Source of the DNA: Candidatus Limnocylindria bacterium
Lineage (GTDB): Bacteria; Chloroflexota; Limnocylindria; QHBO01
Length of the DNA stretch: 64,000 nt
Reading direction: 5' to 3'
Assembly: GCA_036555375.1 (NCBI GenBank)
Contig: DATBLJ010000018.1
Coordinates: forward strand, 2,617-66,616
The number at the start of each line of letters is the position of its first letter. Within the stretch, counting starts at the first letter, position 1. The notes below the pieces were generated by a model. That model was given only the letters and a program-made list of their open reading frames with translations, made no database searches and had not been told where the DNA came from. Shown one piece after another: positions 44,722 through 47,728 of the stretch. The translations under genes were made by a program, and so were the position numbers.

Positions 44722-44937
44722 CGGATCACCTCCTCTCGGCGCGGCGGGCATGAAAAAACCACCTCGTCGCGCGGGTCGATCTGGGAGCGCGCCGGGTGGC
44801 CGTCGGTCGCCGGAGGTCGAGGATGGCGCGCTAGGCGCTCACCTCGGCACCGGCCGGTCGCCGGCACGCGGTCTGTCGGGTACTACAACCAGCGTCCACT
44901 GGGTCGATGGGGCCTCGGGTACTGAGTCGGGCCGATT
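44722..44937 (-). ncRNA. mgtE 5' leader: putative Mg2+-responsive attenuator (M-box-like), containing an intrinsic terminator with a U6 tract immediately upstream of the RBS
   Basis: A 216-nt untranslated leader between the CGNR gene stop and the mgtE start. Hairpin CCACC-cgg-CGCGC…GCGCG-acga-GGUGG followed by UUUUUU (plus-strand A6 at 44753-44758). AGGUGAG-like 5' element. Context matches known ykoK/M-box riboswitches. Confidence 0.4.
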
Positions 44938-45591
44938 CTAGTGCGCGAGCCCGGTCGCGGGAAGGGGCTCGGGAGTACCAGCGCCGCGCCGCCGCGCCCG
45001 ATGGCGGGCCGCCTTCGCCTGGTTGCCGCAGGTCCGCATATCGCACCAGCGCTTGCGACCGGTGCGGGATCGGTCGATGAACACCTCACGGCAGCCGGGG
45101 TTGGCGCAGATCCGGAGCCGGCTCGTCGGGCCCGTGGCCACGAAGTCGGCCAGGGTGCCGGCGATCGTCGCCCGTGCCTGGTCGAGCCGGTCCCCGACCC
45201 GGGCCAGGCCGTATTCCGTCCCGTCGCTGCTCATCTCGAGCTGGTGGAAGTGGAGGCCGTCGCGGAGGACGTGGTTCAGCTCGCGGACGGTGTCGCGGCT
45301 CGGCTGGCCGCCGTCGATGATCTCGGTCGAGGTGGTCCGGATGAGGTCGCGCAGGCCGCGGAAGCGCTCCATCCGGCGCGCGGCTTCCGCCGGGTCGTCG
45401 CGAAGGGTGGCCCGCTCGGAGCTCGCCGCCCGGTCGGAGAGGAGGCCCGCCTGCCGGAGCCAGGCGACGAGCGCGTCGGCGTCGGGGAGCGTCTCGAGCG
45501 GCCGGTCATGGGTGAACGACAGGGTGTTCACGAACCGGACCCACAGCTCGTTCCCGGGCGGCTCCGGCATGGCTGTTCGTGAGGTCGTCAT
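44938..45591 (-). CDS. CGNR zinc-finger (ABATE domain) putative transcription regulator
   Basis: C-terminal RLRICANPGCREVFIDRSRTGRKRWCDMRTCGNQAKAARHR. Probable leaderless or near-leaderless start ATG 45591, 9 nt after a TATAAT. Confidence 0.8.
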   Translation of the reverse strand: MTTSRTAMPEPPGNELWVRFVNTLSFTHDRPLETLPDADALVAWLRQAGLLSDRAASSERATLRDDPAEAARRMERFRGLRDLIRTTSTEIIDGGQPSRDTVRELNHVLRDGLHFHQLEMSSDGTEYGLARVGDRLDQARATIAGTLADFVATGPTSRLRICANPGCREVFIDRSRTGRKRWCDMRTCGNQAKAARHRARRRGAGTPEPLPATGLAH

Positions 45592-45728
45592 GTTGTAACC
45601 ATTATAGGTGGCTTGACAAGTTACTGACACCCACCTAGCATGGGTAACCGATAAGATTCATTACACAAGTTACCGATGGGTTCCTGGAGTCGCCAGCCAC
45701 GCGCATCGGTCAGGAAAGGAGCAAACGG
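45592..45728. promoter_or_regulatory. AT-rich divergent promoter/operator island (about 50 % GC within a 72 % GC genome)
   Basis: Plus strand: TTGACA (45613-45618), 17-nt spacer, TAGCAT (45636-45641), then a GGAAAGGAG SD before ATG 45729. Minus strand: perfect TATAAT (45606-45601) 9 nt upstream of the CGNR ATG. Four GTAAC/GTTAC half-sites at 45595, 45620, 45644 and 45669 (24-25 bp spacing, alternating orientation). 9-mer ACAAGTTAC repeated 49 bp apart. Confidence 0.6.
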
Positions 45729-45887
45729 ATGAGCCGCGGTCTGACCTACATGGCCCTCATCGCCTCCATCCGCCAGCGCGAGCTGCTCGAGGAGGCACAG
45801 CGGGACCGCTACCAGGCCGTTCCGCGTCGCCGCCGAGGCCGCATCTTTGGGATGAGCCTGCCGCGCGCGCTGCGCCGGACGCGATAG
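45729..45887 (+). CDS. small basic protein, 52 aa, hypothetical (MSRGLTYMALIASIRQRELLEEAQRDRYQAVPRRRRGRIFGMSLPRALRRTR)
   Basis: Not in the ORF track (<60 aa). Consensus -35/-10, strong SD GGAAAGGAG 7 nt before ATG, high GC3, and its own terminator (45908-45935). Confidence 0.5.
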   Translation: MSRGLTYMALIASIRQRELLEEAQRDRYQAVPRRRRGRIFGMSLPRALRRTR

Positions 45888-45907
45888 CCAAGACCTTCCA
45901 ACCAGGC

Positions 45908-45943
45908 AGACGCCGGGCCGACGGGCCCGGCGTCTCCATTTCC
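45908..45943 (+). terminator. intrinsic terminator hairpin (perfect 12-bp stem AGACGCCGGGCC/GGCCCGGCGTCT, loop GACG) followed by a T-rich stretch
   Basis: Perfect inverted repeat 45908-45919/45924-45935, then CCATTTCC. Lies between the small ORF and polX. Confidence 0.55.
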
Positions 45944-45967
45944 GGGACCGATTCGTGGCTTCGTAGA

Positions 45968-47728
45968 ATGGCCGCCATGCCTCGCCCCCGTTCCATCCGC
46001 CGGTCCGACACCGACGGCCTGTCCAACGCCGAGCTCGCGGCCACCTTCCGCGAGATCGGGGACATGCTCGAGCTGCTCGGCGAGGTGCCGTACAAGGCGG
46101 TCGCCTACCGGCGCGCGGCGGATGCCATCGAACGCTACCCGGCCGACCTCGTGCCGCTCATCGAGGCGGGCCGGATGCCGAAGATCGCCGGCGTCGGGGC
46201 GGCGATCGGCGCGCGGCTGACCGAGCTCGCGACGACCGGCAGGCTCGAGTACCACGAGCGGCTCCGCGAGCAGGTCCCGCCGGGCCTGGTCGGCGTGCTC
46301 CGGATCGGCGGGGTCGGCCCCCGGACCGCCCGCCAGCTCCACCTCGAGCTGGGCGTGACCTCGATCGACGAGCTGCGCGAGGCCGCCGAGATGGGCCGCA
46401 TCCGCGAGGTGTCGGGGATGTCGGCACGGACCGAGCAGAACATCCTGGCCGGCATCGCACGGCTCGACCAGCAGTCCGACCAGCGCCTGCTCCTTCACGA
46501 GGCGGATCGGCTTGCGAACGAGCTCATCGCGGGCCTCCGGGATGTGACCGGGGTCGAGCGCCTGGCCGCGGCCGGATCGCTCCGGCGCCGGCGGACGACG
46601 ATCGGCGACCTCGACCTGCTGGCCGCCACCACCGACCCGGCGGCGCTGATCGGTGCCTTCCAGGAGCTCGCCGCCGTCGAGCGGGTCATCGCCTCGGGGG
46701 CCGACAAGGCGAGCGTCGTCCTCGCCGCCGACGGGAAGCGCCAGGTCGACCTCATGGTCTGCCGGCCGGAGGCGTGGGGGACCCACCTCGTCCACTTCAC
46801 CGGGAGCAAGGAGCACAACGTCGCGCTCCGCGAGCGGGCGCTCGATCGTGGCCTGTCGCTCAGCGAGAAGGGGTTCCGCGTCGTCGAGACGGGAGAGCTG
46901 CTGCTCGACGCCGACGAGGAGGCGGTCTACGCCCGCCTCGACCTGCCGTGGATTCCGCCCGAGCTCCGCGAGGGCGAGGGCGAGATGGCGGCCGCGATCG
47001 CCGGCACGCTGCCGCGGCTCGTCGAGCTGGACGACGTGCGCGGCGACACCCACACCCACTCCGACTGGACCGATGGCGTGGACACGATCGAGACGATGGC
47101 CCGCGCCGCTCGCGACCGCGGACTGGGCTACATGGTGCTCACCGACCATTCCCCGTCGCTGGGGGTCACCCGGGGACTGACCCCCGACCGGATCGCCGAG
47201 CAGAAGGTCGAGCTCGACCGGCTGAACAGTGAGCTCGCTCCGTTCCGGATCCTGCATGGGACGGAGATGGAGATCCGAGCCGACGGCGCGCTCGACTACC
47301 CCGATGAGCTGCTCGCCCGGTTCGACGTCGTCGTGGCCTCGATCCACGTCGGCCGCAGCCAGCCGACCGAGCAGCTCACCCGACGCTGCCTGGCGGCGAT
47401 CGAGAACCCGAACGTCGACATCATCGCCCACCCGACCGGGCGCATCGTGAACCGCCGCGACCCGGTGTCGTTCGACTGGCCGCAGGTGTTCGAAGCTGCG
47501 GCCCGGACCGGGACCCGGCTCGAGATCAACGGCAGCCCGCGGCTCGACCTCGACGAGCGGCTGGCCCGCGACGCGGCCCAGGCCGGGGTGCAGCTCACCC
47601 TCGCCAGCGACGCACATCGGACGGAGGAGCTCGAGTACCTGGACTACGCGGTCGGCGTCGCCCGGCGGGCGTGGCTCGAGCCGGGCCAGATCGCGAACAC
47701 GGCCGGCGTGGAGGGGTGGAGCCGATGA
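45968..47728 (+). CDS. polX: DNA polymerase X family protein with C-terminal PHP phosphoesterase domain
   Basis: 586 aa; N-terminal HhH/8-kDa domain; palm (…GSLRRRRTTIGDLDLL…); PHP domain (HTHSDWTDG…, VLTDHS, …SDAH…). Confidence 0.9.
   Translation: MAAMPRPRSIRRSDTDGLSNAELAATFREIGDMLELLGEVPYKAVAYRRAADAIERYPADLVPLIEAGRMPKIAGVGAAIGARLTELATTGRLEYHERLREQVPPGLVGVLRIGGVGPRTARQLHLELGVTSIDELREAAEMGRIREVSGMSARTEQNILAGIARLDQQSDQRLLLHEADRLANELIAGLRDVTGVERLAAAGSLRRRRTTIGDLDLLAATTDPAALIGAFQELAAVERVIASGADKASVVLAADGKRQVDLMVCRPEAWGTHLVHFTGSKEHNVALRERALDRGLSLSEKGFRVVETGELLLDADEEAVYARLDLPWIPPELREGEGEMAAAIAGTLPRLVELDDVRGDTHTHSDWTDGVDTIETMARAARDRGLGYMVLTDHSPSLGVTRGLTPDRIAEQKVELDRLNSELAPFRILHGTEMEIRADGALDYPDELLARFDVVVASIHVGRSQPTEQLTRRCLAAIENPNVDIIAHPTGRIVNRRDPVSFDWPQVFEAAARTGTRLEINGSPRLDLDERLARDAAQAGVQLTLASDAHRTEELEYLDYAVGVARRAWLEPGQIANTAGVEGWSR

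Follow-up and report, generated by a model that had tools for sequence, protein, structure and literature searches.

Introduction

In TetR/TetA-type modules, a regulator with ligand-sensing and DNA-binding domains is encoded divergently from its target. The intergenic region is short, and both promoters are overlapped by its two operators at -35, -10, and +1. Here we describe a similar arrangement around a gene for a CGNR/ABATE protein in a MAG from an uncultured member of the Chloroflexota (Candidatus Limnocylindria). We analyzed a 64-kb stretch of this genome, which we will call the window. Because the candidate operators in the window overlap both promoters, as in TetR/TetA-type modules, autoregulation is implied. 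However, TetR-type regulators bind DNA with a helix-turn-helix, while the protein in the window has a C-terminal treble-clef zinc finger. Also, the centers of the TetR half-sites are about 10 bp apart, instead of 25-26 bp with an AT-rich spacer of unconstrained sequence.

Other regulators share some of these features. NrdR is a repressor with a zinc ribbon and an ATP-cone, and it acts on tandem NrdR boxes that overlap promoters; its motif was initially deduced from comparisons of genomes. Each NrdR box is a palindrome of 16 bp; tandem boxes lie about 31-32 bp from each other, and higher oligomers occupy them. Like the CGNR protein in the window, NrdR has a zinc-ribbon or zinc-finger DNA-binding domain that is fused to a sensor domain, and repeated boxes lie over promoter elements. 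NrdR differs in its fold, in its domain order (the zinc ribbon is N-terminal in NrdR), and in its regulon (ribonucleotide reductases). BirA at bioO and PurR from B. subtilis at the PurBox recognize inverted half-sites that are about 16-20 bp apart, with little-conserved DNA in between. As in our proposal for the CGNR protein, the dimer spans more than two helical turns, but BirA and PurR are winged-helix proteins that are unrelated to CGNR and their half-sites have other sequences.

The closest described protein is Jann_2411 (3H0N), which has the same two Pfam domains and is the only significant fold match. This was the founding structure of the ABATE/CGNR family, from 2009 (PMC2954205). The protein was described as dimeric and as a putative stress-induced regulator, and its basic treble-clef finger was predicted to bind DNA. 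No operator or target has been reported for Jann_2411, whereas the locus in the window supplies a candidate for each. In the literature we searched, we found only the structure paper and incidental mentions of the CGNR/ABATE family, and no DNA site, target gene, or ligand. This is a large orphan family of putative regulators: when clustered at 50% identity, the members found in a single-sequence search form at least 7,950 groups. It is common in Actinobacteria, Proteobacteria, and Chloroflexota.

Results and discussion

The CGNR/ABATE protein and the divergent intergenic region

The window contains just one CGNR gene. It is separated from a divergent small ORF by an island that the first-pass annotation, which was made from the window's sequence, had described as having about 50% GC content in a 72% GC background. 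We measured 50.4% for the island and 71.7% for the entire window. The features of the region are listed in Table 1.

Table 1. Features of the CGNR locus, in window coordinates. Promoters, operators, and hairpins are predictions.
Feature	Positions	Strand	Details
CGNR/ABATE regulator gene	44938..45591	-	217 aa from first ATG (45591..45589); 210 aa from second ATG (45570), gene callers' choice
AT-rich divergent intergenic island	45592..45728	.	Between CGNR gene and small ORF; defined by composition
Candidate operator O1, GTAACC-N18-AGTTAC	45595..45624	.	Half-sites S1 45595-45599 (GTAAC) and S2 45620-45624 (GTTAC); overlaps minus-strand -10 box and start, and plus-strand -35 box
CGNR promoter, -10 box TATAAT	45601..45606	-	Predicted start near 45594-45591
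Small-ORF promoter, sigma-70-type	45613..45641	+	-35 TTGACA 45613-45618, 17 nt, -10 TAGCAT 45636-45641; predicted start near 45648 (from distance to -10 box)
Candidate operator O2, GTAACC-N18-AGTTAC	45644..45673	.	Half-sites S3 45644-45648 (GTAAC) and S4 45669-45673 (GTTAC); over predicted start and early transcribed region of small-ORF promoter
Possible 5'-UTR hairpin, clade-specific	45673..45709	+	CCGAUG/CAUCGG outer stem, CUGG/CCAG inner stem
Small ORF, presumed target	45729..45887	+	52-aa basic protein; RBS GGAAAGGAG at 45713-45721
GC-rich 12-bp hairpin, terminator-like	45909..45934	+	3' of small ORF; weak U tract
PolX leaderless promoter	45964..45979	+	-10 TAGAAT 45964-45969, 7 nt, ATG 45977

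The CGNR protein has an N-terminal ABATE domain (PF07336, E = 2.3e-17, residues 15-153) and a C-terminal zf-CGNR domain (PF11706, E = 1.3e-19, residues 158-201). The finger reads C-ANPG-C...W-C-DMRT-CGNQ, with glutamine in place of the arginine of the CGNR signature, as in some other members, and its four cysteines are invariant in 33 orthologues. An exact-sequence look-up of the 217-aa product had no match because the gene callers start at the second ATG. The protein matches 3H0N by sequence (E = 2.8e-8, only about 24% identity) and so does its AlphaFold model (E = 2.3e-7, TM 0.53-0.61). There were no other significant structural matches in the PDB, where the family has one apo structure and no DNA complex. 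Within the orthogroup, zf-CGNR is conserved far above ABATE: the mean frequency of the top residue is 0.89 instead of 0.69, and 21 of 44 positions are invariant instead of 26 of 139. This pattern fits an invariant DNA target.

Two pairs of half-sites in the window and in related genomes

The first-pass annotation reported two GTAAC and two GTTAC half-sites, which would form two GTAAC-N20-GTTAC inverted pairs that overlap both promoters, and a sequence that is repeated 49 bp apart. All four half-sites were confirmed by position; the pairs are O1 and O2 in Table 1; and the repeated sequence is ACAAGTTAC, which begins at 45616 and at 45665. When we searched the 64 kb for GTAAC-N20-GTTAC with up to one mismatch, O1 and O2 were the only matches, as compared to 0.05 matches expected by chance, and none of 100 shuffles reached two. 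A relaxed pattern (TAACC-N7-20-RGTTA) found the same two sites, with 0.01 expected. GTWAC by itself is not enriched across the window (12 sites, 13.3 expected), although 4 of the 12 sites are within 79 bp of each other. Because GTWAC is palindromic except at its center, the orientation of the sites rests on one base, and this base is invariant in relatives.

To examine relatives, we used 86 non-redundant loci from Candidatus Limnocylindria, whose CGNR proteins are 45-79% identical to the protein in the window. The first-pass annotation had stated that its reading would be refuted if relatives did not conserve the spacing of the motif, and the reading passed this test. Both units are kept in 85 of the 86 loci, and the spacing within a unit is always 25 bp, while the sequence of the spacer has diverged. 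The 12 half-site positions are 98.8% identical across the relatives, as compared to 34% for the AT-rich core of the spacer. The half-sites are perfect in 80/85 relatives for O1 and in 84/85 for O2. Among exact matches in 520 kb of sequence from the relatives, 163 of 165 are in the intergenic stretch beside the CGNR gene, and none are elsewhere in oriented loci. Judging from these alignments, the sequence of the half-sites and their internal spacing are under strong purifying selection.

The spacing between the units is another matter. The first-pass annotation had described four half-sites that were about 2.4 helical turns apart. In the window, the start-to-start distances are indeed 25, 24, and 25 bp (S1-S2, S2-S3, and S3-S4), and the distance within the pairs is conserved. 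But across relatives, the distance from O1 to O2 varies from 45 to 55 bp and the gap from S2 to S3 varies from 22 to 29 bp, so the even phasing is particular to the window's clade and is ruled out as a general feature. The alignment indicates that each pair is an operator unit by itself, rather than part of an evenly phased array of four.

Could a short palindromic 5-mer have recurred by chance in an AT-rich promoter region? The motif was chosen after the sequence was seen, and the lack of enrichment of GTWAC across the window might seem to support this idea. However, besides the excess of paired sites in the window, plasmid loci with distant CGNR genes (see below) have 12 exact matches in 54 kb, with 0.045 expected (from analytic and mononucleotide controls). 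Conservation in nearly all of the relatives, on either side of a randomized spacer, refutes the chance explanation, which we consider vanishingly improbable. The recurrence of these sites is non-random and is far from chance.

The candidate operators overlap conserved promoters

A promoter scan of 800 bp found 2 promoter-like sites, as compared to 0.1 in shuffles. The scan recovered the plus-strand TTGACA-17-TAGCAT promoter that the first-pass annotation had proposed for the small ORF, and the perfect TATAAT that it had placed on the minus strand, 9 nt before the ATG of the CGNR gene, is present as well. Both promoters are conserved in relatives. On the plus strand, TTGACA abuts S2 in 82/85 loci, TAnnnT lies 16-17 nt downstream in 84/85, and S3 begins 2-7 nt past the -10 box (2 nt in the window's clade). 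On the minus strand, the -10 box abuts S1 and is TATAAT, TATACT, or TACAAT in 72/85 loci. No -35 box that is shared by relatives turned up on this strand: the candidate GTGTCA (45630..45625) is not conserved, and the region to the right of S2 has low information.

In 82 of 85 loci, there is an in-frame ATG for the CGNR protein 0-5 nt beyond S1. This supports the suggestion in the first-pass annotation that the CGNR transcript is leaderless. The distance from the -10 box to the start codon, which is extrapolated, is 6-10 nt in 68/85 loci (and 9 nt in the window), which is too short to accommodate a Shine-Dalgarno sequence. With the start predicted near 45594-45591, the CGNR mRNA would be leaderless or its leader would not exceed 3 nt. 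The -35 box of the small-ORF promoter falls within O1, as do the -10 box and start of the leaderless CGNR promoter, and O2 covers roughly +1 to +25 of the predicted small-ORF transcript. So, the candidate operators overlap conserved promoter elements of both divergent genes.

Alternatively, the repeats might function as RNA in the 5' ends of both mRNAs, either because GUAAC pairs with GUUAC or because the CGNR protein reads them as an RNA-binding zinc ribbon. Indeed, JGI and COG name these proteins "predicted RNA-binding Zn ribbon-like," and, in most clades, O2 falls at the 5' end of the small-ORF transcript. Also, a symmetric double change (ATAAC...GTTAT) in O2 from a single locus (L074) would keep the pairing. 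On the other hand, O1 has the same architecture and its halves flank both predicted starts, so no transcript would carry both; and in the window's clade, the plus-strand -10 box ends just before S3, so S3 would be largely untranscribed. A stem of 5 bp that closes a 20-nt loop is weak, and the half-sites carry uncompensated changes, in five loci for O1 and three times in Pantoea piersonii (WTAAC with GTTAC). In a covariance scan of 44800-46400 against Rfam 15 (E ≤ 10), we obtained only noise (best E = 1.6-6.6, far below the gathering scores). The two apparent spacing classes that are described below, about 10 bp apart, suggest the geometry of B-DNA. We rejected a role of the half-sites as RNA, mainly because both predicted starts lie between the halves of O1 and because the changes are uncompensated, and we view such a role as quite unlikely.

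It is even less likely that the units are tandem ECF-type promoters that read towards the small ORF, with GTAACC as the -35 box and GTTAC as the -10 box. Many ECF -35 boxes resemble xGAAC or TGTAAC, and their -10 boxes contain GT. In all of the Limnocylindria loci, both units have the same polarity, and position 6 is asymmetric throughout (GTAACC for the left arm and GTAACT for the right arm). However, the two boxes would be exact reverse complements, with a palindrome that reaches position 9 in both arms (GTAACYnnT), and in Proteobacteria the palindrome is perfect. There are 20-21 nt between the 5-mer boxes, as compared to 16-18 nt in known ECF promoters. A near-consensus housekeeping promoter is conserved at the same place, and there are no genes for sigma or anti-sigma factors near the island.

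The motif is found beside distant CGNR genes

The best 120 homologues of the CGNR protein were all from the same orthogroup, and we took distant homologues from a plasmid collection. Further lineages with GTAAC-N20/21-GTTAC beside a CGNR gene number nine. The motif, mostly in one to three copies, adjoins CGNR genes whose products are about 30% identical in α-, β-, and γ-Proteobacteria. There are 2-3 copies of GTAAC-N21-GTTAC in three species of Pantoea; three copies in Sodalis; two copies each in Paraburkholderia, Caballeronia, and Rhizobium daejeonense; and one copy in Pararhizobium and at each of two loci from Ralstonia. Neorhizobium petrolearium has four sites; they precede the genes for the CGNR protein, a hydrolase, and a flavin reductase. 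Overall, the partner genes include an alpha/beta hydrolase, EamA, a flavin reductase, small ORFs, and a probable nitronate monooxygenase (read from its ORF, unscanned). The partner genes differ between lineages, so only the CGNR gene is common to all of these loci. In the 50 kb around the CGNR genes of Pantoea and Caballeronia, exact matches occur solely in the CGNR intergenic region. These observations show that the association of the motif with CGNR genes extends across phyla.

The sites do vary across the family. The element in Proteobacteria is a perfect palindrome, TGTAACC-N19-GGTTACA. Deinococcus has a like architecture with another hexamer (two copies of CTTACC-N18-GGTAAG), while in a few sequences from Streptomyces and Burkholderia we found only shorter-spaced TAACC/GAACC palindromes. 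The motif was missing from three sampled CGNR loci (Agrobacterium pusense, Neorhizobium SOG26, and Chondrinema). When we aligned 19 fingers by operator type, no residue tracked the half-site sequence.

Given that the repeat is unchanged in about 85 relatives and that CGNR genes in distant phyla also have it beside them, the CGNR regulator family very probably binds DNA at this site. The first-pass annotation had left open whether the array was for autoregulation by the CGNR protein or for another regulator, and the motif's presence beside distant CGNR genes with differing partners supports the former. In principle, another trans-acting regulator, such as a global regulator of stress or DNA damage, might bind these sites, and the CGNR gene might merely be one of its targets. 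The link between CGNR proteins and these sites comes from sequence comparison, and a damage regulon might be suspected because the DNA-repair polymerase PolX is kept in synteny. But PolX has its own promoter, and the motif follows CGNR genes in Chloroflexota and in three classes of Proteobacteria, where PolX is absent. Also, the motif is not found in the rest of the 64-kb window, in the 520 kb of flanking sequence from relatives, or in the 50-kb surroundings of the two proteobacterial genes. Furthermore, the known LexA boxes (GAAC-N4-GTTC and CTGT-N8-ACAG) and the RDRM from Deinococcus are unlike GTAAC-N20-GTTAC. We consider regulation by some other protein to be unlikely.

We lean slightly towards a broader hypothesis: that GTAACC-N18/19-GGTTAC is the ancestral, family-wide operator of ABATE/CGNR proteins. 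The fingers of the dimer would lie on half-sites about 2.4 turns apart, and the AT-rich spacer between them would be bendable. In Streptomyces and Burkholderia, there might be another subclass whose half-sites are one turn closer (TAACC/GAACC-N8-9-GGTTA/GGTTC), and CTTACC in Deinococcus might be a specificity variant. If the operator is family-wide, then genome-wide prediction of regulons from sequence could be possible for the CGNR/ABATE family.

A proposed mechanism for regulation

We propose that the island is a divergent promoter-operator region, that O1 and O2 are bound by the adjacent CGNR/ABATE protein, and that this protein represses both its own gene and the small ORF. We believe this explanation is likely to be correct. 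The CGNR protein would most likely bind as a dimer, with one treble-clef finger per half-site; the centers of the half-sites are 25 bp or about 2.4 helical turns apart, and the sequence of the AT-rich spacer between them varies freely. When bound to O1, the protein would mask the small ORF's -35 box as well as the regulator's own -10 box and start. Binding to O2 would block the first 25 nt or so of the small-ORF transcript. Release would presumably follow from some signal that is sensed by the ABATE domain.

If the CGNR protein does bind, then repression seems rather more plausible than activation, because the plus-strand promoter is near consensus. The center of O1 is near -38 of the small-ORF promoter, which would also be compatible with activation. 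Two aspects of the sites do not fit easily with a simple dimer. A separation of 25-26 bp between half-sites would be unusually wide, and a dimer like that of Jann_2411 would need to span about 85 Å. Also, the asymmetry between the left and right arms at position 6 is not explained by a symmetric dimer.

The island and the comparison across phyla together give a 30-bp candidate operator for the CGNR/ABATE family, a clear set of candidate targets (the regulator itself and its divergent neighbor), and a prediction that can be tested directly. Half-sites spaced this widely would be unusual among bacterial regulators with zinc fingers. In this genome, the proposal suggests a small, conserved, stress-type module beside PolX that comprises a putative repressor and a 52-aa basic protein.

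The small ORF and PolX

The order of the CGNR gene, one or more divergent small ORFs, and then PolX is kept in about 85 loci. The small ORF is conserved: it forms 23 clusters with 79-100% identity, and synonymous changes are visible. It had no match in Pfam or NCBIfam, and an extra hydrophobic peptide from the sister clades had no match in NCBIfam either. The predicted structure has one N-terminal helix and a disordered, Arg-rich tail, which is too simple for a structure search to be informative.

The signal for an RNA hairpin in the 5'-UTR of the small ORF is weak. RNAalifold reported 8 pairs, and one sequence accounts for both of the 2 compensatory changes; the z-score from a single sequence is +0.30, which is not significant. 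The hairpin downstream of the small ORF is strong (-35.2 kcal/mol, z = -3.05), although a strict terminator scan did not call it. PolX appears to have its own leaderless promoter: the -10 box is TAGAAT in 82 of 83 loci and TACAAT in the remaining one, and among the loci we read it lies 7-9 nt before the conserved MPRPR start. The regulated transcript is probably that of the small ORF, which would end in the strong hairpin, and PolX has its own conserved promoter.

A conserved pair of inverted repeats between the CGNR gene and the small ORF

The intergenic island separates a minus-strand gene for an ABATE/CGNR zinc-finger regulator (the CGNR gene) from a plus-strand ORF of 52 codons (the small ORF). 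It has a GC content of 50.4%, versus 71.7% for the window. A consensus scan of 45300-46100 found two promoter-like sites, versus 0.1 in shuffled sequences: there is one for each gene, and the TATAAT of the CGNR promoter lies 9 nt before the ATG (45591..45589, minus strand). The composition and the scan confirm the AT-rich island and the two divergent promoters described by the first-pass annotation. Its four half-sites, and the two copies of ACAAGTTAC that are 49 bp apart, are also where it placed them. The half-sites form two inverted pairs, GTAAC-N20-GTTAC, which we call units O1 (half-sites S1 and S2) and O2 (S3 and S4). These are the only copies of this motif in the 64 kb, even if one mismatch is allowed. 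Because just 0.05 copies are expected, and 0 of 100 shuffles had two, chance is excluded as an explanation.

Features of the region, in window coordinates
Feature	Position	Strand	Details
Intergenic island	45592-45728		between minus-strand gene 44938-45591 and plus-strand ORF 45729-45887
O1	45595-45624		S1, GTAAC, 45595-45599; S2, GTTAC, 45620-45624
O2	45644-45673		S3, GTAAC, 45644-45648; S4, GTTAC, 45669-45673
CGNR promoter	45630-45601	-	GTGTCA-18-TATAAT; consensus scan
Small-ORF promoter	45613-45641	+	TTGACA-17-TAGCAT; consensus scan
GC hairpin after small ORF	45909-45934		12 bp, tetraloop; -35.2 kcal/mol, z = -3.05
PolX -10 box	45964-45969		TAGAAT; 7 nt, then ATG at 45977 (MPRPR...)

We collected related loci from Limnocylindria: four near-identical metagenome contigs, six metagenome loci found via the small ORF, and 80 genome loci found via the CGNR protein. 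Essentially all of these have the same gene order (the CGNR gene, divergent from the small ORF or ORFs, and then PolX), down to 45% identity of the CGNR protein. Two units with at most one mismatch are present in 85 of 86 non-redundant loci. Within a unit, the half-sites are 25 bp apart (start to start) without exception, whereas the offset between O1 and O2 varies: it is 53 in 36 loci, 54 in 18, 49 in 16 (including the window), 52 in 7, and 45-55 in the others. This implies that the functional unit is the pair. Thus, the regular spacing that was noted originally holds within each pair, but a uniform spacing of ~2.4 helical turns across the four sites is particular to the window's clade.

Among the 85 loci with both units, the half-sites are perfect in 80 for O1 and in 84 for O2. 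The symmetry of the arms spans nine positions (GTAACYnnT in both arms), with a consistent asymmetry at position 6 (C in the left arm, T in the right arm). When the 18 closest distinct sequences are aligned, the four half-sites are all invariant blocks and the remainder is variable. Across loci, identity is 98.8% at the 12 half-site positions of O2, versus 34% in the central 15 nt of its spacer, which are AT-rich (40% GC). The relatives' loci (520,106 bases) contain 165 exact matches, of which 163 are in the intergenic stretch adjacent to the CGNR gene; there are none elsewhere in the oriented loci.

The motif is found beside distant CGNR genes

Using tblastn against a collection of plasmids and chromids, we found 283 records with CGNR homologues (~30% identity), and we inspected 20 distinct loci, representing 18 species or strains.

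Distant loci whose CGNR gene or operon has the motif in its promoter region, either exact or with one mismatch
Organism	Sites	Location
Pantoea anthophila, deleyi, vagans	2-3 tandem GTAAC-N21-GTTAC	
Pantoea piersonii	3 copies of WTAAC-N21-GTTAC	
Sodalis praecaptivus	3	
Ralstonia, two loci	1 each	
Paraburkholderia largidicola	2	
Caballeronia insecticola	2	
Rhizobium daejeonense	2	upstream of hydrolase-CGNR operon
Neorhizobium petrolearium	4	upstream of CGNR gene, hydrolase and flavin reductase
Pararhizobium qamdonense	1	

The distant loci contain 12 exact matches in 54 kb, versus 0.045 expected. Around the CGNR genes of Pantoea and Caballeronia, 50-kb stretches have exact matches only in the CGNR intergenic region. 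The partner genes at the distant loci vary: they include an alpha/beta hydrolase, EamA, a flavin reductase, and a 362-aa ORF that, judging by eye, we take to resemble nitronate monooxygenase. These motif-bearing loci lack PolX and the small ORF. The sole common element is the CGNR gene.

We consider the motif's presence beside distant CGNR genes to be the decisive evidence as to which protein binds it. It supports the original proposal of an operator array for the adjacent CGNR protein, and on these sequence comparisons, O1 and O2 are very probably CGNR operators. That the sites instead belong to another regulator, which the first-pass annotation had allowed for, is improbable: the motif tracks CGNR genes across phyla, and there are no extra sites in the window, in the oriented loci of the relatives, or in the two 50-kb stretches.

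Some other CGNR loci have variant motifs. Deinococcus sp. QL22 shares this architecture but has a different hexamer (two copies of CTTACC-N18-GGTAAG), and a Sphingomonas locus has ATAACC-N18-GGTTAG. Three Streptomyces and two Burkholderia loci have TAACC/GAACC-N8-9-GGTTA/GGTTC, with a spacing ~10 bp, or one helical turn, below that of the long class; because there are few sequences, this short-spaced class is tentative. The CGNR loci of Agrobacterium pusense, Neorhizobium SOG26, and Chondrinema have no recognizable motif.

As in O1 of the window, TTGACA adjoins a half-site (TTGACARGTTAC, on either strand) within proteobacterial operators (loci L091, L094, L103, L108, L109, and L110). The combination may be a conserved element made up of a -35 box plus a half-site; alternatively, the half-site itself may be extended.

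The CGNR protein and its family

The CGNR protein is clearly a member of the ABATE/CGNR family, as judged by its domains (ABATE, PF07336, 2.3e-17; CGNR zinc finger, PF11706, 1.3e-19), its cysteines, and its fold. By sequence and predicted fold, its only relative among solved structures is Jann_2411 (3H0N). Within the Limnocylindria orthogroup, conservation is much higher in the zinc finger than in the ABATE domain (0.89 versus 0.69), as expected if the DNA target is fixed. The family is large: a full HMMER pass found 7,950 cluster representatives at 50% identity (E ≤ 1e-3). Our literature search for a binding site, target, or ligand of ABATE/CGNR proteins found only the 2009 paper on the structure of Jann_2411, which predicted a dimer and DNA binding and gives none of the three (PMC2954205). 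GTAAC-N20/21-GTTAC seems to be the first operator candidate for this large orphan family. Its half-site spacing of 25-26 bp is unusual, and it could be tested with one oligonucleotide.

Proposed mode of regulation

In 82 of the 85 loci, the plus-strand -35 box, TTGACA, immediately adjoins S2 (TTGACAAGTTAC). A TAnnnT hexamer follows it at 17 nt in 76 loci and at 16 nt in 8. The gap between this -10 hexamer and S3 is 2 nt in the window's clade, and 6-7 nt in most other loci, so O2 would cover about -5/+1 to +25/+30 of the transcript of the small ORF. (All transcription starts are estimated from the distance to the -10 box.) On the minus strand, TATAAT, TATACT, or TACAAT adjoins S1 in 72 of 85 loci; the -35 box from the scan, GTGTCA, is not conserved across relatives. 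An in-frame ATG lies 0-5 nt past S1 in 82 of 85 loci, which leaves no space for a ribosome-binding site. We infer that the CGNR mRNA is leaderless, as originally suggested. Public gene calls start the CGNR gene at the second ATG (45570; 210 aa). Because the in-frame ATG beside S1 is so widely conserved, and because several relatives lack the second ATG, we favor the first ATG (45591; 217 aa) as the true start.

We propose that a CGNR dimer would touch both half-sites of each unit across the AT-rich spacer. Occupancy of O1 would hide the -35 box of the small-ORF promoter and, at the CGNR promoter, both the -10 box and the start, and occupancy of O2 would block promoter escape. The CGNR protein would then repress itself and the small ORF until some signal acts on the ABATE domain. 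If the protein does bind, the operator positions and the near-consensus plus-strand promoter make repression rather likelier than activation.

Two other readings concern the element itself. It could work as RNA: COG/JGI label the family "RNA-binding Zn ribbon-like," and O2 of one relative (L074) has a symmetric double change, ATAAC...GTTAT, that is compatible with base pairing. But O1 straddles both predicted starts, S3 is largely untranscribed in the window's clade, half-site changes are otherwise uncompensated, and there is no match in Rfam, so we think this is very unlikely. (In P. piersonii, all three units combine WTAAC left halves with unaltered GTTAC right halves, which does not fit base pairing.) Tandem ECF-type promoters are more improbable still, as the boxes are exactly palindromic and the two 5-mers are separated by 20-21 nt.

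Repression by the CGNR protein would be an ordinary kind of system, with a local repressor and operators in a divergent promoter. As a divergent repressor-operator module, it is functionally like TetR/TetA. NrdR, which is a zinc-ribbon repressor, is nearer in DNA-binding chemistry, and the wide-spaced operators bioO and PurBox are nearer in half-site geometry.

The small ORF and flanking elements

The small ORF is a real gene, as its homologs form 23 protein clusters (79-100% identity) and show synonymous changes of codons. Throughout the class, this conserved ORF is the CGNR gene's divergent partner. The 52-aa product does not belong to a known family in Pfam or NCBIfam; its model has a single long helix at the N terminus (residues 3-30, pLDDT ~90) and then a disordered arginine-rich tail.

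The gene downstream encodes a DNA polymerase of the PolX/PHP type, and MgtE lies upstream of the regulator. No M-box or other riboswitch was found in the 186 bp upstream of mgtE, up to the end of the CGNR gene (44752-44937, scanned from 44800). After the GC hairpin downstream of the small ORF comes a weak T tract (TCTCCATTTCC); the T runs of relatives are clearer. A strict terminator scan did not call this hairpin, but the small-ORF transcript probably ends there. The TAGAAT of PolX is present in 82 of 83 related loci (the remaining one has TACAAT), 7-9 nt before the ATG in the loci that we inspected, and PolX seems to have a leaderless promoter of its own. The mechanically predicted start of PolX, at 45968, falls within the -10 hexamer and is probably incorrect. 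With a probable terminator and a separate conserved -10 box, the link to PolX would be synteny, not a shared regulated transcript.

In sister clades (L021, L043, L054, and most of the loci whose CGNR protein is less than 60% identical), an extra ORF of ~35-45 codons lies directly downstream of O2, before the basic small ORF. Its product is a hydrophobic peptide in which a ...FDLAALRWGADSR... motif is conserved. The extra ORF has no match in NCBIfam and is absent from the window's clade.

The small-ORF mRNA has a candidate 5'-UTR hairpin at 45673-45709 (CCGAUG/CAUCGG and CUGG/CCAG), which the 18 closest relatives share. Two of its pairs are compensatory, both of them in a single sequence (L014), and its energy z-score is not significant. 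A second CCGAU, right after S3 (45648-45652), could be an alternative partner for the same 3' arm.
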